21,431 bases of DNA, from IMG/VR virus record IMGVR_UViG_2563366923_000001, positions 1 to 21,431 of that record; one strand, 5' to 3'. A program made the translations under genes and the position numbers. This DNA comes from a virus. Taxonomy: Duplodnaviria; Heunggongvirae; Uroviricota; Caudoviricetes. Shown here piece after piece: positions 5,509 through 17,781 of the stretch. The notes beneath the pieces are model-generated. The model was not told the DNA's origin, ran no database searches, and saw only the letters and a program-made list of their open reading frames with translations. Within the stretch, counting starts at the first letter, position 1; each line of letters opens with the position of its first letter.

Positions 5509-7773
5509 ATGGGTTTGCAAAGCATAAGAATAAAAAACTTACTATCATTTAATGATGTAATAATAAATTCCCTAGAGGATGTAAATTGCATTGTAGGGAT
5601 GAATAATGTTGGCAAATCCAATCTTATGAAAATATTGAAATATTTTTACGACAAACTTGACGACATAAAAGTAATACCTCCTGATTTTCATTCTAGTTAT
5701 ACTCCTTCAGGGTCAATAACATTGACTTATGATGTAACAAGAATAAAGAGAATTGTAATGAACCCTAATAACAATGGTCGCTTTCACAAGCATATTTATA
5801 ACACTTTATTTAAGCCACAATCATTCATCCGAAAGCCGCAGAAATTCTGTCTTCCTTTCATATCTCCTTTGGGTTTCCAAAGAAAAAGCACTTATAGCAT
5901 TACACTCACAATTTCTAAAGATGACTCCGTAACTTGGTCAATTAGCACACCAAATGCCCGGCATCTAATTAAAACTCTATTTCCTTTTTTCCATATTGAA
6001 ACCAGACACATTGACTTATACGACTGGAATAGCATATGGAAAATGCTCAGCAGTATAAATTCCTTTAATTTCTCTGAAATAAAAAAAGAAGAACTCCTTG
6101 AGTTTTTGAATGAGAAAATATCAACTAAGCGGGGTAGTTACAAGAAGTATATAGAAAGAGTTGAAAATGTAATCCATACTAAACCTTACACCTATAAAGA
6201 TAAAGTCGTTAATTATCTAAAAATAGTTTTAGATGGCGATATTTTCATAAATAAAGGTGAAGAACTACATGTTCAGTCGGATGGCACGAACTCTCACAAA
6301 TATCTTGAAATTATACTTAGCCTATTAATTTCATTAACAAGAACAGAATTTATCAATCCAATTATATATATTGATGAACCTGAAATTGGGCTACATCCAA
6401 AACTTAGCGAGAACTTTATTGAGAACATAAGCCTGACATATAAAAAGTATGATAAAACCCATGAGGAAATTGAGCCTGGAAAATATTCAACACCATATCC
6501 AACTCTTATATTTAGCACTCATTCTCCGAGTTTACTAAAACTCACGCTAAAATCTTTCTTACATAAACAGCAGGTTTTGCATTTTTCAAAAGAACGTGAC
6601 AACTCGACCAAAATTTCAAAATTAAACTCTAAATATAATGACATTAGATTTATAAATATGCTTAGCGATAATGAGGCCCGTCTATTCTTTAGTGAATACA
6701 TTCTATTTGTAGAGGGCGCCACAGAAGTTGAATTGTTTAGAAATTATAATCTGCAAAAGCTGTTTCCAGTACTTAAAAGGTTAGATGTGTATGATTGCGA
6801 TGAAGTAATGTTGAAAAATATAAACCCCAGCTACTCAAATGCAGCCATCCCATTTCTAGTAGTAAAGGATATTGATCAGATTGCCGTTGTTGACTTCGAA
6901 CATGAACAATTTAAATTTAATTCGAAAGGGAAATCAATTATTAATAAAATCATTAAGAGAGATAAACTACACTATTTTTCGACATACCAAAAACCTTTTC
7001 TTAACGCAGCAAAATTTCTTTTAAGCCAAGATGAAAGGAAAGTAACATTCAGTGAAAATGGCCTAAAATTCAGACACTTCAGTATAGGCAGAGTTATAAG
7101 CGCAGTTAATTTTTTATCCTCTAAAGATAATGTTTATTATACTTCTACAACGATAGAAGGCTCATTGATCAATGAATTCTCTTTAGAGACATTCTCTTTA
7201 TGGATCATTGACATAGTAATGAGAAGCTTTAATGTAAATAATAAAAACCCTGTAAAAATGATTAATGCTCTGCTGCAAAAATACGATATTAAAACCCAAT
7301 CAAAACAACTTTTTCCCAAAATACTTTCAAAATGTGAAACAAATCATGACCTACCATTGCGACACATGAGATTATTGAAAATCATTAAAATTAGATATGC
7401 TAAAGAAATAATTGATGAGTTTAAAAAAACCATCCCCGACGTAAAAGACCAAGTTGCTATCTTGCGCCTTATTTTTAGTGGCAAAACAGAAACTCTTGTA
7501 AGTATAGAAATGCATTATAAAATTGATCAAAAACCGATACGGCAAGATATATTGGATTATATCAAAGCATTAAAGTCAGAAAATTTCTCTTTTATGAGTT
7601 CTTACATAGGAAAGACTTCTGGATGGGTTACAAGCTTCATTGATTTTAGCCTTAATCATTATTCAGCCCTAGATAAAGAAAATGTCGAAAAAAAATTCCG
7701 CTTGGCTTTTCCTGAAATTTCGCATATCATCGATCATGCTTCTTCTTCGATAGAAGCTGGAGGGCTCAAATGA
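5509..7773 (+). CDS. OLD-family nuclease-like protein: N-terminal ABC-type ATPase, central TOPRIM domain, about 300-aa unassigned C-terminal extension (754 aa)
   Basis: Walker A GMNNVGKSN near the N-terminus; Walker B/D-loop IIYIDEPEIGLHP; H-loop FSTHSP; TOPRIM glutamate motif LFVEGATEVELF and DxD-like VVKDIDQIA; AAGGAA RBS before the ATG; strongly AT-rich relative to the prophage backbone. Confidence 0.75.
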   Translation: MGLQSIRIKNLLSFNDVIINSLEDVNCIVGMNNVGKSNLMKILKYFYDKLDDIKVIPPDFHSSYTPSGSITLTYDVTRIKRIVMNPNNNGRFHKHIYNTLFKPQSFIRKPQKFCLPFISPLGFQRKSTYSITLTISKDDSVTWSISTPNARHLIKTLFPFFHIETRHIDLYDWNSIWKMLSSINSFNFSEIKKEELLEFLNEKISTKRGSYKKYIERVENVIHTKPYTYKDKVVNYLKIVLDGDIFINKGEELHVQSDGTNSHKYLEIILSLLISLTRTEFINPIIYIDEPEIGLHPKLSENFIENISLTYKKYDKTHEEIEPGKYSTPYPTLIFSTHSPSLLKLTLKSFLHKQQVLHFSKERDNSTKISKLNSKYNDIRFINMLSDNEARLFFSEYILFVEGATEVELFRNYNLQKLFPVLKRLDVYDCDEVMLKNINPSYSNAAIPFLVVKDIDQIAVVDFEHEQFKFNSKGKSIINKIIKRDKLHYFSTYQKPFLNAAKFLLSQDERKVTFSENGLKFRHFSIGRVISAVNFLSSKDNVYYTSTTIEGSLINEFSLETFSLWIIDIVMRSFNVNNKNPVKMINALLQKYDIKTQSKQLFPKILSKCETNHDLPLRHMRLLKIIKIRYAKEIIDEFKKTIPDVKDQVAILRLIFSGKTETLVSIEMHYKIDQKPIRQDILDYIKALKSENFSFMSSYIGKTSGWVTSFIDFSLNHYSALDKENVEKKFRLAFPEISHIIDHASSSIEAGGLK

Positions 7774-7893
7774 GCTGACGCATGCCGTCACTTGCTCCAG
7801 CAAACACTAGCTCGGATTGTCTTGCGTCCGCTAAGCCGCTTTAAGCCTCACGGGGTGTAAAGATGTTATTGGTATCGAAGAGGAAGCTTTTAC

Positions 7894-8991
7894 ATGAAAC
7901 ATAAAATTAATAAAATTAACAATGATTTTTATAAAAATTTTTATCTAAGAGAAACATTCTCCGATGATATTATTATGACTCACGGAGTCCCTGAGATTTC
8001 CAATGACGATTATAAAAGCATTTCATTAAAGAATAGATTATGTTTCACTATAAGAAAAAGCTCCCCGCATAAAAAAATACAAGAAAGACTTATAAAAAAT
8101 TTCCTAGTAAAAGTTCCTCTTAGCTCACCTGCAATTGCCTATCGTAAAAAATTAAACTATTTGAATTTTCTAGAACCTCATATCCATGGTGAGAACTTTT
8201 GTCGAATTGACTTATGTAATTTTTTTCATAACATAAACTATAACTTTGCAAGGGAGTGTTTCAAATCCTACTTTGAAGATGAATATCTGGTAAATAAAAA
8301 AATCAAAGTTATTGATGCATTTTTAAATAGTTTATCTATTGAGATTGTAGTCAACAATAAAAAGAAAAAAATATTTCCAATGGGATTCGCCACATCACCT
8401 TTCATATCCAATATAATTTTCAGAAAGTTAGATATTTTAATTAAAAGTTTGTGTGACAAAAGAAGCATCATTTACACTCGTTATGCTGATGATATGCTTT
8501 TTTCGAGCTCCGGGAAAGACAAACTTCTTGGAAGTGAACATTTTGACAACGAGATATCAACTATTGTCAATACGGCAGGACTGTCCCTCAACAAACATAA
8601 AAAAATATTTAAGAAAGGCATAATCTCACTAAACGGCTATGTAATAGAAAATAAAAATGGAGGGGGAGAGAGAGGGAGTATAAGAATATCTAATGGAAAA
8701 ATGTATTTAATACGGAAAGCACTAGATAAATTTAAAAAGGGATATTCTAAAGAGCATATTTGCAAAAAAGTATTTTCTGTTAAATCACCAACTGTCAAGT
8801 ATAATAACAATGCAGATCAGTTTGTAACGGATTTTTATAATTCACAATTCTCTAATAAGTTAGCTGGTTATCGTTCATATTTAATATCATTAGTAAAATT
8901 TAATGATAAATTCAGATGTTTTCACGAAAACGAAATCACCAAATACTCAGTGATTATTGATGAAATTTCTAATGCACTGCTAAAACCCTAG
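7894..8991 (+). CDS. Reverse transcriptase, retron/Abi-like (365 aa)
   Basis: RT motifs in order: RIDLCNFFHNI (motif 2 region), FPMGFATSPFISNIIF (motif 4, compare retron PQGxxxSPxLSN), YTRYADD (catalytic YxDD at 8482-8493), LSLNKHKK and ISLNGYVI (retron-like motif 6/7 region, but no canonical VTG); GAGGAAG RBS; AT-rich; no maturase or endonuclease domain. Confidence 0.8.
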   Translation: MKHKINKINNDFYKNFYLRETFSDDIIMTHGVPEISNDDYKSISLKNRLCFTIRKSSPHKKIQERLIKNFLVKVPLSSPAIAYRKKLNYLNFLEPHIHGENFCRIDLCNFFHNINYNFARECFKSYFEDEYLVNKKIKVIDAFLNSLSIEIVVNNKKKKIFPMGFATSPFISNIIFRKLDILIKSLCDKRSIIYTRYADDMLFSSSGKDKLLGSEHFDNEISTIVNTAGLSLNKHKKIFKKGIISLNGYVIENKNGGGERGSIRISNGKMYLIRKALDKFKKGYSKEHICKKVFSVKSPTVKYNNNADQFVTDFYNSQFSNKLAGYRSYLISLVKFNDKFRCFHENEITKYSVIIDEISNALLKP

Positions 8992-12568: not shown

Positions 12569-13060
12569 TTACGCTCCCGGCTCTGCGGTCGCTTTAGCCG
12601 GTGTGGAGAAATCACCGACCTTAATTTTTTCCACCAGACAACCGGCGGCGTAGTCCTCCACCACGTAATCAATGTTCATTGACTCGTAGTTCTCCACGCG
12701 ATCGAGTTTCGGGTTTTCCTCAATCACGCGGCGATGGCTGTCATCCATGTAGTAGATGGACAGGTTTTCCAGCTTCGTGATGAGCATCGCATCAGCCGGG
12801 AAGTACGGGACGCGTACCGCTGGCAGGTTGCCGATGCGTTTCTGGCTGATGATGACGTCAGCGGCCAGCATTTCGCTGTTGTCCTGCTCCTTGTTGACGA
12901 TGGGAAAATACTTGTCCGCCAGTAGCTGACGTCCCACAATCACCACAAGGTCAGGGTCTTCCTGATACCACGGCTCAATCAGGTTGTTGGTCGCATCCAT
13001 CACCAGTGCATCAAGGCTGGCATAATCACCGCCCTTATCCGTTCTGGTCGGGTGAACTGT
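12569..13060 (-). pseudogene. N: Major capsid gene N remnant (C-terminal about 157 codons only)
   Basis: Frame reads ...KGGDYASLDALMMDATNNLIEPWYQEDPDLVVIVGRQ... to the stop at 12569; an upstream in-frame stop at 13061-13063 and no N-terminal about 200 codons; P2 N is 357 aa. Confidence 0.68.
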
Positions 13061-14051
13061 TCAACCGGGGACGCGCCAGCGCCGCCGAACGCGTGGAAAT
13101 CGACGTCAGTCATAACGCCCTTGCCGGTGGGCTTCTCTGTGCGGACGGCCAGTGGCGGCAGATTGTCACCATTGAGGACGCCCTGAAAGGTGGCTGCACG
13201 CTGTTCGACATTGAGCAGCTTAAACGCGAAAACAGCGCCGACGATTTTAAAAACCTGTTCATGTGTGAATTTGTTGACGACAAGGCGTCGGTATTTCCCA
13301 GCAGGATTTCAGCCGCTTTGTGCTGGATTTTCTGGTGTTCGGCAATGCGTTTCTGGAAAAGCGTTACAGCACCACCGGTAAGGTCATCAGACTGGAAACC
13401 TCACCGGCAAAATATACCCGCCGTGGCGTGGAAGAGGATGTTTACTGGTGGGTGCCGTCCTTCAACGAGCCGACACCTTTCGCGCCCGGCTCCGTGTTTC
13501 ACCTGCTGGAGCCGGATATTAATCAGGAGCTGTACGGCCTGCCGGAATATCTCAGCGCCCTTAACTCTGCCTGGCTGAATGAGTCGGCCACTCTGTTCCG
13601 CCGCAAGTATTACGAAAACGGCGCACATGCCGGATACATCATGTACGTCACGGATGCCGTGCAGGATCGCAACGATATCGAAATGCTTCGCGAAAACATG
13701 GTGAAGTCGAAAGGCCGCAACAACTTTAAAAACCTGTTTCTCTATGCCCCGCAGGGAAAAGCCGACGGCATTAAAATTATCCCGCTCAGTGAAGTGGCGA
13801 CGAAGGACGATTTTTTTAATATCAAAAAAGCCAGTGCCGCAGACCTGCTGGACGCGCACCGCATCCCCTTTCAGTTGATGGGCGGCAAGCCGGAGAACGT
13901 CGGGTCGCTGGGCGATATTGAGAAAGTAGCAAAGGTCTTTGTCCGCAATGAGCTTATCCCGTTACAGGACAGGATCCGCGAGATAAACGGCTGGCTCGGT
14001 CAGGAGGTCATCCGATTTAAAAACTACTCACTGGACACTGACAACGGCTGA
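13040..14051 (+). pseudogene. Q: Portal gene Q remnant: no start codon, reading frame switches near 13280-13300
   Basis: C-terminal 243 codons (13320..14051, frame 3) are an intact portal-like sequence; the N-terminal part is in frame 1 (track ORF 13006..13578); frame 3 has a stop at 13275-13277; frame 1 upstream of about 13040 is antisense to N; position next to cos fits P2 Q. Confidence 0.62.
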
Positions 14052-14056
14052 ACATC

Positions 14057-14078
14057 GCCGCCTGCGGGCGGCTTTTTT
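14057..14078 (+). terminator. Rho-independent terminator after Q (GCCGCC-TGCG-GGCGGC plus TTTTTT)
   Basis: 6-bp GC stem and T6 tract beginning 6 nt after the Q stop codon. Confidence 0.7.
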
Positions 14079-14220
14079 ACACCCCGTCATCACGCCCTCA
14101 CACGTTCGCCACTGTACAAAACACCCCGCAGACACACCAACGCCCCGGCAGGCCGACTAAACGCCATCACGACGCGCTCAGACGCTGAAAAAATAAAATC
14201 AGCACCACCGCCAGCGCGCA

Positions 14221-14239
14221 GTGCTTTCCCCGCCTCGCC
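14221..14239. other. P2 cos cohesive-end sequence (reverse complement of GGCGAGGCGGGGAAAGCAC)
   Basis: GTGCTTTCCCCGCCTCGCC at 14221-14239 matches the 19-nt P2 cohesive end as I recall it, and sits where cos lies in a P2 prophage (between Q and the tin/old region). Confidence 0.72.
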
Positions 14240-14331
14240 CGCCCGCTTCATGGGGCGGTTTTAATGCAGTTACATAGATACTATGGATCCGCACCAGTCC
14301 TGACCGCACGCAGCCTGAACGGACATCCCCG

Positions 14332-15419: not shown

Positions 15420-15491
15420 TGCTAACGCCTCACTTCGCTCGTTGTTCAACCCCGCCAGCCTGAAAACAAGTTTCACGACTGGCGGCGTTCT

Positions 15492-15644
15492 CTATCGTCT
15501 GCGTGGTGGTGGCGCAACTCTGGACTGACCGATATAGTTAAACCGCCCGTAATTATCCCGGACTATTTCGGCACACCCGACCAGCTCGTCAGGCGTCAGA
15601 TTTTCGTTGACCATAATCTGCTGTAAACGGTGAACAATGGCCAT
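15492..15644 (-). CDS. Possible small ORF (50 aa, MAIVHRLQQIMVNENLTPDELVGCAEIVRDNYGRF...), function unknown
   Basis: ATG-to-stop ORF below the track size cut-off, with an in-frame upstream stop and a weak AGG-type RBS; backbone-like GC content; could be a remnant of a phage gene. Confidence 0.2.
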   Translation of the reverse strand: MAIVHRLQQIMVNENLTPDELVGCAEIVRDNYGRFNYIGQSRVAPPPRRR

Positions 15645-15738
15645 CAACCTGACACTTTTGGTGTTATATGTGGTATCTCACATGAGATTACTGACCAAGG
15701 TGCATCTTGGTTGACTCATTTCATATCCATCCACACCA

Positions 15739-16419
15739 CTACATCTTTATTGCATATTTATTAAAAGACGCCCAGTTCAATAAAAAAACATTATTCATAT
15801 ACCATTCAATATGATTTTTATTTTTAGATTGACTGTCAAGTAGCACACAAACATCAACCTGTTTATCAATCAATTTTGCAATATAAACCACAAACTCAAC
15901 ACTCGAATATCTCTTTGTGCCTAGCAAATATAATATTTCATCTGACAAATAATTAGACTCATGTGAAAAGACATTATCATTTAACAAAATCAACCCGCCA
16001 ATCGAGTCATTTAAATCCAAAACATCCTTTGTTGCATTTATTTGCTTATTAGCTTCCTTAACTATCTTTGTTTTAATATTTTCATAAGCAAAGTTCATTA
16101 TATCATTTCTAAATCGCTTTGAGTCTGGGTGTCTTTTTATCAACTCTTCTAAATGAATAGCACCATGCCAGTTTTTTGCAAGCCAACTATCAGTTTTAAC
16201 CAACTCATTCAGTTTATCATTGACATTCTTGACCCTGTCAGAAAAAAGACTTTTCATCTCCAAAATTATCTTTTTATTATCAATAAGATAATCTGCCATC
16301 TTGCGATTCTGACCATCCTTCATCCGGAACTTATGATGAATATCATCAATAGAAATCCCTTTTTCATGCTCAACAATGAATCTCTTAACATTGTTTTCTA
16401 ATTCGCTGTATTGTTTCAT
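15739..16419 (-). CDS. Hypothetical protein (226 aa), AT-rich cargo; no recognisable motifs
   Basis: ORF with a strong GGGGGAAAG RBS; 27 nt downstream of the DUF2158 gene on the same strand (operon-like). Confidence 0.6.
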   Translation of the reverse strand: MKQYSELENNVKRFIVEHEKGISIDDIHHKFRMKDGQNRKMADYLIDNKKIILEMKSLFSDRVKNVNDKLNELVKTDSWLAKNWHGAIHLEELIKRHPDSKRFRNDIMNFAYENIKTKIVKEANKQINATKDVLDLNDSIGGLILLNDNVFSHESNYLSDEILYLLGTKRYSSVEFVVYIAKLIDKQVDVCVLLDSQSKNKNHIEWYMNNVFLLNWASFNKYAIKM

Positions 16420-16446
16420 ACTTTCCCCCGTGAATTTTATTATGAT

Positions 16447-16638
16447 TCACTTACGTGGACGACACAGCATACCACTTTTACTCTCTGCTATTTCCAGTAA
16501 ATCAATGGAGAATGACTCCTCGTGCAAAACTCCTTCTTTATCATGCCAAATACATTTCGCATGAGTTTCAGTAGAGTCAGATACAGTCATTTTAAATCCA
16601 CCGCTTTTCAAACAAACAACATCTGCAGGCTTTAACAT
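16447..16638 (-). CDS. DUF2158 / YodC-like small protein (63 aa)
   Basis: Internal start MLKPADVVCLKSGGFKMTVSD... with GGAG 7 nt upstream; the DVVxLKSGGxxMTV signature resembles YodC-family small proteins; the track ORF 16447..16722 over-extends the N-terminus. Confidence 0.55.
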   Translation of the reverse strand: MLKPADVVCLKSGGFKMTVSDSTETHAKCIWHDKEGVLHEESFSIDLLEIAESKSGMLCRPRK

Positions 16639-16764
16639 TTTTGTCTCCAACATTTTTAAGTAATGCATTATAACATAATGATATTGACGTAGATTTAATG
16701 CATGCAACCATATAAAAAACAATCAATTACAGTCAAAACTACTTATACTGTATAGATGAGATCC

Positions 16765-17781
16765 TTACTCAAATTGATGCCAGAATCCCGACCACTCATC
16801 AGCGACCGGATACGTGAATTTTTTCCCGTCATAATTTACGGTCGCGCCACGCGCCAGCGCCTCAAGCTCCCATCGCTGCGGCCTGATACCGTTCTGAGCA
16901 AGGTCAACGCGGATACGGGTGATTTGCAATCGTTCAGACCGGGTCAGTCTGGCCGATGGCGCTATTTCATGTGGTTTTAACGGGCTTCCGTTTCTTTGCT
17001 GACGATTTGGTGTTTTCAGGCCGTGTTTTAATGCACCCCTGAGCGTCCTCACGACCTCCGGGTCATTCCATTCGATAACACCGTCATCAACCAGATTTAG
17101 CACTGCTGCGGCGTGTTCAGAAGGTGTGGGAGCCGGTAACGAAGTATCACCACCGGTGAGCTTTCCACAGTTATTGACAGGACTCCGAGGCGCGGCGATG
17201 CCGCTTTTTAACGTCAAAGGCTCAACGACCGGCACTTTCGGCACAATGCGCCAGTCCGTCGTTCTGGTGATATGAATATGACGCGCGCCGAGATGCGGCG
17301 CGTAAATGCCGACCACTCTCTCGACCTCTTCCTCGTACTCGTTAACGTCATCCGACGGGCTACGGGCAACCCTGACAGTCTGACAATCGCGCGGAACATT
17401 TGCCCCACCCTGCGCGCTGATATACAACGCAAAATCACCACTGTCTGCGGCAGCGCGTGCAGCCTCGACGCGTTCGTCAAACTCATCAGCAATGCTGACG
17501 CCGCGAGGCAATTTGCGTAGTTCACGGTAAGCCCCCATTGTCGGCAGACCAACCGTTTTAAATTGCGGAATGCGCCACGTTGACGCCCATGCGGTAACAG
17601 CAGCAGCTGTGTCTTTCAGCGGCCTGCCGGTATCATTATCGAGCTGACCATCCAGTGCATAGCCGTCGATGTTTTTTGAGATGTATTTCGCGATATATCC
17701 CGCAGCACCGCCCCGGTTAAGATGTTTTGTTGTTCCTGAATAAAATCTACGTTGTCCGGCATTATCAGCTCCTTTTATCGT
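16765..17781 (-). pseudogene. A: Replication initiator gene A remnant (C-terminal about 335 codons, with the YIAKYISK active-site region, but no N-terminal about 430 codons and no start codon)
   Basis: Frame is open from 17781 to the stop at 16765 and reads ...KHLNRGGAAGYIAKYISKNIDGYALDGQLDNDTGRPLKDTAAAVTAWASTWRIPQFKTVGLPTMGAYRELRKL...; the rolling-circle Rep Y-x-x-K-Y motif is present; no in-frame start before Met 17538; P2 A is 761 aa. Confidence 0.68.

Follow-up and report, generated by a model that had tools for sequence, protein, structure and literature searches.

The question raised by this locus is what function two short, AT-rich genes perform in a damaged prophage. The window, which is the whole stretch of 21,431 nucleotides analysed, is a P2-like (Peduovirus) prophage of an enterobacterial host. 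The A-to-cos site is a validated defence hotspot of P2 and holds tin and old, which exclude other phages (PMC9122126). The survey of Rousset et al. 2022 covered 18,150 gpA-gpQ loci, and 169 arrangements have been curated for the P2 hotspot (PMC9122126). The pair described here is one of these, system 63 ‘DUF2158’, with 67 occurrences and both sequences printed (Table S5B, PMC9122126). The two sequences are absent from Table S2, the list of systems evaluated for defence (PMC9122126). The locus has been in GenBank for years as hypothetical ORFs and was catalogued in 2022. No mention of its accession numbers was found in the literature searched, where DUF2158 itself is mentioned by two papers, in passing only.

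The pair lies in a variable cassette between gpA and gpQ/cos, the hallmark of P2-like hotspot cargo. The two genes make up an accessory (‘moron’) cassette at the diversity hotspot between A and cos of a P2-like prophage. The preferred reading, at a probability of about one half, is an exclusion or defence module in which ORF226 would be the effector nuclease and the DUF2158 protein would modulate it through targeting, sensing or restraint. Added here to the catalogue entry are the predicted assignment of ORF226 as a nuclease, with the size of the unannotated family behind it, and the predicted barrel fold of DUF2158. The exact cassette boundaries, the two-slot organisation of the hotspot and the confinement of the pairing to P2-like phages are also added.

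Prophage setting and cassette boundaries

From gene A toward cos, the minus strand carries the A remnant, the 63-aa ORF, the 226-aa ORF and the 51-aa ORF (see the table). The initial annotation had placed a DUF2158 gene and a 226-aa gene, 27 nt apart, between cos and the A remnant and convergent with a 313-aa gene. Each element of this description was confirmed, the two genes lying on the minus strand with a spacer of exactly 27 nt. The base composition and the ribosome-binding sites also agree with that account, as the pair has a GC content of 30-35% against ~55% in the backbone, and GGAGA and GGGGGAAAG precede the two ATGs.

Positions of the features of the A-to-cos region in the window, with strand and supporting detail
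Feature	Position	Strand	Detail
P2 cos 19-mer GGCGAGGCGGGGAAAGCAC	14221-14239		exact match
ORF313, 313 aa	14478-15419	+	after cos; convergent with the DUF2158/ORF226 pair
Conserved backbone segment, 258 bp	15422-15679	.	90-99% match to Wphi, P2, vB_YpM_46 and other P2-like phages
51-aa remnant ORF	15492-15647	-	phrog_11386, profile positions 18-69 of 69
AT-rich cargo cassette, 1.1 kb	15680-16781	-	homology to Wphi/vB_YpM_46 ends at 15679 and restarts at 16782
ORF226, 226 aa	15739-16419	-	ATG 16419; predicted PD-(D/E)xK nuclease
ORF226 residues			candidate catalytic D43, E54, K56; conserved D25, Q126, N147
Spacer, 27 nt	16420-16446	-	holds the ORF226 ribosome-binding site GGGGGAAAG, 16421-16429
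DUF2158/YodC gene, 63 aa	16447-16638	-	ATG 16638, stop 16447-16449
GGAGA ribosome-binding site of the DUF2158 gene	16644-16648	-	5 nt before the ATG
Extended -10 promoter-like element TGTTATAAT	16667-16675	-	~22 nt upstream of the DUF2158 start
Second promoter-like site TTGACT-18-TATGGT	16707-16736	-	weaker; consensus match only, 9/12 (scan)
Gene A C-terminal remnant, 257 aa	16765-17538	-	phrog_91 ‘nicking at origin’, profile positions 517-749

The shortening of gene A corresponds to a 1766-bp deletion relative to Escherichia phage vB_EcoM-720R8 (window 16765-17729, junction 17728/17729). The same deletion takes away part of a TraR-like gene and a small gene that overlaps A at its 5′ end, and no genome among 5,426 complete E. 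coli genomes spans its junction. Damage is also seen in the terminase P and portal Q genes (window 13036-14254). Here an internal piece of P (13036-13298) runs at ~13294 into Q, which begins around codon 93, and 910 bp are absent compared with vB_EcoM-720R8. A second AT-rich island (~30% GC) lies among the late genes on the plus strand at 5509-8991. Its products are a 754-aa AAA_15/AAA_21 ATPase and a 365-aa RVT_1 reverse transcriptase, and it looks like a retron- or DRT-type defence locus. The prophage as a whole is defective, yet every cargo ORF is intact.

The limits of the cassette were set by BLAST, which gave the same breakpoints (15679|15680 and 16781|16782) against Wphi and against the Yersinia phage vB_YpM_46. 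The enclosed interval contains precisely the DUF2158 gene, ORF226 and their upstream region. As the breakpoints are shared in both comparisons, the interval behaves as one exchangeable cassette, and the earlier proposal of a discrete cargo operon at the tin/old position is upheld. Its place is taken by a 150-aa ORF in vB_YpM_46 and by orf91 and orf92 in Wphi.

The conserved 258-bp segment is situated between the pair and ORF313, so that the two cargo units occupy separate slots, the pair in the A-adjacent sub-slot and ORF313 in the cos-proximal slot. The A-to-cos hotspot is thereby split into two separately swappable slots, and the segment itself may act as a recombination anchor. Its 51-aa ORF is a shortened copy of a 68-aa ORF, and the RefSeq label of the phrog_11386 ORF is ‘meiotically up-regulated 80 protein’.

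The third gene beside the pair varies and may be of 313 aa, of 250 aa, a DUF2188 gene or absent. In the Citrobacter and metagenome loci that carry the pair, the other slot holds the 250-aa gene, the DUF2188 gene or nothing. ORF313 (phrog_5937), for which no Pfam or PADLOC match was found, is 98.9% identical, flanks included, in the Yersinia pestis phage vB_YpM_46, which is without the pair. A three-gene system including ORF313 was ruled out on the grounds that ORF313 occurs there without the pair and that the third gene beside the pair may be a different one or missing. ORF313 is a cargo module in its own right.

The two genes and their predicted products

Both genes are real and under purifying selection. 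At this GC content stops make up ~8% of random codons, and by our arithmetic a frame of 226 codons would stay open by chance with a probability of ~1e-8. Comparison of the window with the Citrobacter or metagenome copies gives a dN/dS of 0.08-0.09 for ORF226 and of 0.17-0.22 for DUF2158. Four loci of ~75% identity elsewhere all have the same ribosome-binding site, GTTGGAGA, and the spacer, which measures 41-43 nt in the Citrobacter and metagenome loci, retains a conserved TTCAC..GAGG. The extended -10 element is kept as TGnTATAAT in three of the four diverged loci and reads TGATATACT in the fourth. The second promoter-like site falls between the stop of A and the DUF2158 gene. Judged from these elements, expression of the cassette from its own promoter in the lysogen is plausible.

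Alternative DUF2158 starts, giving 73 or 91 aa, were rejected. The 63-aa start is favoured by the conserved GGAGA and ATG, the upstream ATGs are lost in the Citrobacter loci, and the position of the promoter-like element is also against the longer forms. In the window ORF226 is in frame with the DUF2158 gene, with the TGA and nine sense codons between them, and read-through would give a 299-aa fusion. A fusion of this kind was discarded as well, as two of the three distinct diverged loci do not keep the shared frame, which is probably due to chance.

The 63-aa protein carries the DVVCLKSGGFKMTV signature and matches Pfam PF09926 (DUF2158) over residues 6-46, with 33.1 bits against a gathering cut-off of 22.3 bits (E 4.7e-8). 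A profile search recovered 360 homologues, those listed all having PF09926. The model built from 62 homologues (pLDDT 82.4) predicts the small all-beta barrel of the DUF2158/YodC family, a five-stranded SH3/KOW-like fold, followed by a disordered basic C-terminal tail. The model contains neither HTH nor RHH, the DNA-binding folds that antitoxins typically have. As modelled, the barrel is a generic protein- or nucleic-acid-binding adaptor fold, untypical of antitoxins. Of the nearest relatives outside the clade, one follows smpB and another a lipocalin gene, both in housekeeping surroundings, and further DUF2158 genes are found in structural or late regions of Aeromonas phages. YodC/DUF2158 occurs in E. 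coli K-12 and many Proteobacteria, and we know of no role assigned to it.

ORF226 had been described as an orphan with no recognisable motifs, and this description has to be revised. Neither the single sequence nor its profile gave a match in Pfam, NCBIfam or PDB sequences, to a named nuclease family or otherwise. No model of PADLOC-DB 2.0, which covers systems described up to 2023, matched DUF2158 or ORF226 at E<=1. An exhaustive profile search of 1.84 billion representatives nevertheless recovered 348 relatives of ORF226 at E<=1e-3, 74 of them at E<=1e-10. The close homologues form 26 clusters, and the members carrying an organism name are all from Enterobacterales. In none of the 150 best relatives does a Pfam domain cover the shared region, and PADLOC gave four weak PDC-S12 matches only among 150 relatives. 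Sub-threshold DpnII-MboI matches were obtained for two relatives, and the match with coordinates, in one relative, covers the motif region.

Three length classes are present in the family: ~220-260 aa, ~330-345 aa with a C-terminal helical extension, and 600-740 aa. In the longest class Mrr_cat was detected in four and a SEC-C motif in four of 150 representatives scanned, Mrr_cat being N-terminal and SEC-C C-terminal in the long relatives inspected. The ORF226-like domain of five such proteins (P0049, P0052, P0053, P0061 and P0071) lies at residues ~340-520. Mrr_cat-like domain, ORF226-like domain and SEC-C zinc motif together make up an uncharacterised multidomain architecture. Read by eye, the N-terminal Mrr_cat-like domain of the long relatives appears degenerate at its catalytic positions.

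Across 150 relatives, mostly of 17-30% identity, the residues D25, A42, D43, E54, K56, A123, Q126, T130 and N147 are nearly invariant, and D43, E54 and K56 are at least 90% conserved. Invariance of D43, E54, K56, A123, Q126 and N147 extends through 18 diverse full-length members. The local pattern is (K/R)(A/P)DY(L/F)L, 5 to 7 residues, then I-x-E-x-K, and some relatives have the canonical ‘KPDYFL...ILEKK’. In an AlphaFold2 model made from 14 homologues (pLDDT 82.3, pTM 0.80), D43 stands just before strand 44-46 (A42-D43) and E54 and K56 are within strand 51-57. A helical insertion of ~75 residues (62-134) follows between strand 3 and strand 4, and then more strands. The D...(D/E)xK arrangement that defines the PD-(D/E)xK motif, placed on adjacent beta-strands and conserved family-wide, is thus found in ORF226. 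The model is nearest to restriction-endonuclease folds, with the restriction enzyme BsmI as its best structural match, and no match was significant in a Foldseek search against the PDB. The nuclease fold and catalytic motif are predicted with moderate strength, and ORF226 is probably a PD-(D/E)xK nuclease of an unnamed, unannotated family.

Distribution of the pair and readings of its function

The locus is 100% identical in vB_EcoM-720R8 and 97.6% identical in the P2-EC67 GenBank entry AM157369, where the genes are annotated as ORF73, ORF226 and ORF313. It is carried by 27 of 5,426 complete E. coli genomes, and the viral contigs hold near-identical copies only. P2-like loci were compared from E. 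coli prophages and phages, Citrobacter loci, and viral and metagenome contigs. Every locus recovered has the two genes side by side in the same orientation with a gap of 27-43 nt, and ORF226 is 74-100% identical. The genes are exchanged together as a single cassette and, within P2-like phages, remain a pair. In nucleotides the pair is ~75% identical between the E. coli and Citrobacter lineages, about as diverged as gene A.

Outside these phages ORF226 homologues occur alone, in four independent contexts. Homologues of 64% identity are present on IncFII-type plasmids of Pantoea ananatis, beside a PLDc_2 gene, and on contig L011, after a DUF559/MTES_1575 gene. A third, of 67%, is on contig L025. 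The fourth, of 41%, is found in an unrelated prophage (L014 4327-6539, a contig of Logan SRR29733102), 33 nt downstream of a CI-type repressor gene (HTH_3 and Peptidase_S24). Its neighbours include a DUF4238 gene and a serine recombinase gene, and a BamHI restriction-modification system lies ~3 kb off. Two distant homologues were met on very short contigs. A contig scan of species-representative genomes with the ORF226 alignment gave no relative.

Six-frame HMM searches found no DUF2158 in the flanks of the solo homologues (L004-L007, L011, L014, L025, L063 and L064), and no ORF226-like ORF beside the DUF2158 genes of other phages. From the solo ORF226 homologues and the partnerless DUF2158 genes it follows that the link between the two is lineage-specific and confined to P2-like phages. 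The co-occurrence suggested as a check by the initial annotation therefore stands inside P2-like phages and fails outside them, where the two were never found together.

Several explanations of the cassette have to be weighed against a defence role. In its layout of a small upstream gene, a larger nuclease-like downstream gene on the same strand and a short spacer of 27-43 nt, the pair resembles a type II toxin-antitoxin system. ORF226 would then be a toxic nuclease and DUF2158 its cognate antitoxin, serving prophage maintenance or abortive infection, and the strict retention of the pair within P2-like phages agrees with this. A toxin of this type is always accompanied by its antitoxin gene, whereas co-occurrence here is not obligate, the homologues of 41-67% identity (Pantoea plasmids, L011, L025 and L014) being without DUF2158 in the six-frame search. 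DUF2158 is moreover widespread, stand-alone and in housekeeping contexts, and its modelled barrel differs from the DNA-binding folds of antitoxins. That ORF226 is able to exist without DUF2158 speaks against a classical toxin-antitoxin system and for an accessory role or mere co-carriage. The likeness drawn in the initial annotation is weakened accordingly, and this explanation is considered unlikely. Mere co-carriage, in which ORF226 acts alone and DUF2158 is a functionally unrelated neighbouring moron, would account for the independent existence of each family and for ORF226 relatives that are single-gene insertions elsewhere. It is nonetheless judged improbable, since the breakpoints enclose both genes and the short spacer has neither a predicted terminator nor a second promoter. 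Across ~25% divergence in P2-like phages there was also no case of one gene without the other, despite swaps of the adjacent cargo.

A benefit to the phage itself has been considered in the form of a distal extension of the early operon, acting in replication, recombination, host takeover or counter-defence. The pair is oriented as cox-B-A, follows immediately after A and has kept pace with A in its divergence between the E. coli and Citrobacter lineages; these observations weaken the defence reading, as a phage-internal function fits them too. The DUF2158 genes in the Aeromonas phages point the same way. Against such a function, the pair is present in 67 of 18,150 E. coli P2 hotspot loci, and from this low frequency it is concluded to be dispensable for P2-like biology. 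It is also AT-rich foreign DNA with homologues on plasmids and beside a CI repressor, and it is kept intact in a prophage no longer able to replicate or package, all of which leaves a benefit of this kind doubtful. Most improbable of the alternatives is that ORF226 is nuclease-like in fold and yet not a DNA nuclease, but an RNase, a binding module or an inactive scaffold. The family-wide near-invariance of D43, E54 and K56 is the pattern expected from selection for catalysis, and the Mrr_cat-like domains of the long relatives look degenerate, on a by-eye reading, at the motif positions.

The exclusion or defence module remains the preferred reading, and the argument for it is one of location and context. 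The hotspot houses tin, old and several validated systems (PMC9122126), and the repressor-adjacent 41% homologue lies beside a DUF4238 gene. DUF4238 is itself a P2-hotspot defence validated by Rousset et al., with activity against T7 (PMC9122126). A defence role is further suggested by the intact state of the cassette in a prophage with deletions in A, P and Q. In the mechanism proposed, the cassette would be expressed in the lysogen from its own promoter, and ORF226 would serve as a metal-dependent PD-(D/E)xK endonuclease, the effector of prophage-encoded exclusion or defence. Its target may be the DNA of a superinfecting phage or, in an abortive response, that of the host itself. The part of DUF2158 in the cassette is speculative; its SH3/KOW-like barrel might be an accessory specific to this lineage, tuning, targeting or gating the nuclease, and not an indispensable antitoxin.

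A bolder form of the defence reading is a new two-component anti-phage system, in which a YodC/DUF2158 KOW-like barrel licenses an unrecognised family of PD-(D/E)xK nucleases. The barrel could then sense a phage product, or hold the enzyme at nucleic acid or at the machinery of transcription or translation. This form is put forward only tentatively.

If the cassette protects against phage, a compact 0.9-kb system joins the P2 hotspot repertoire. A function would also be given to an unannotated nuclease family of several hundred clusters, found in prophages, plasmids and large multidomain proteins, and YodC/DUF2158 would gain its first functional handle. If it does not protect, it is one more hypothetical cargo pair among the 169 curated arrangements.

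Comparison with known systems

The closest counterparts are system 63 and the ORF73-ORF226 pair of P2-EC67, which consist of the same two proteins in the same gpA-gpQ hotspot. For DUF2158 the sequences do not differ, and ORF226 is ~99% identical in our own comparison of the window with the printed sequence of system 63. The genes are given in these sources as hypothetical or as DUF2158, with no function or fold, and the copy in the window differs in belonging to a degraded prophage.

P2 tin and old are likewise prophage cargo at the same genomic position. Old is an ATPase-TOPRIM protein and, like the predicted product of ORF226, a nuclease. There is no homology between tin/old and the pair, and ORF226 has no ATPase or TOPRIM match and a different predicted fold. 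The pair also sits in the A-adjacent sub-slot, separated from the cos-proximal slot by the 258-bp conserved segment. Nuclease effectors in prophage hotspots are a known kind. Among PD-(D/E)xK enzymes the comparison set comprises the catalytic domains of BsmI and N.BspD6I, NucC, CdiA-CT EC869 and Cas4/RecB-like proteins. ORF226 differs from these in the helical insertion of ~75 residues between strand 3 and strand 4 and in having no profile match to a named family or solved structure.

A precedent for the DUF2158 partner is offered by the UG2 reverse-transcriptase defence genes, which occur alone or with neighbours bearing an N-terminal YodC (COG5475) domain (Mestre et al. 2022, PMC9226505). 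By this analogy a layout of sensor or accessory plus effector, the other arrangement raised by the initial annotation, stays a candidate. In UG2/DRT2, as proposed here, a YodC/COG5475 (that is, DUF2158) protein is a non-universal accessory, and the effector also exists as a single-gene variant (PMC9226505). The effector there is a reverse transcriptase (PMC9226505), whereas here it is a predicted nuclease. YodC in UG2/DRT2 is the N-terminal part of larger proteins, one of them fused to WYL (PMC9226505), whereas here it makes up a whole 63-aa protein. Should the two-component reading be true, then together with the YodC accessories of UG2/DRT2 the first function of YodC would be that of a portable defence adaptor.
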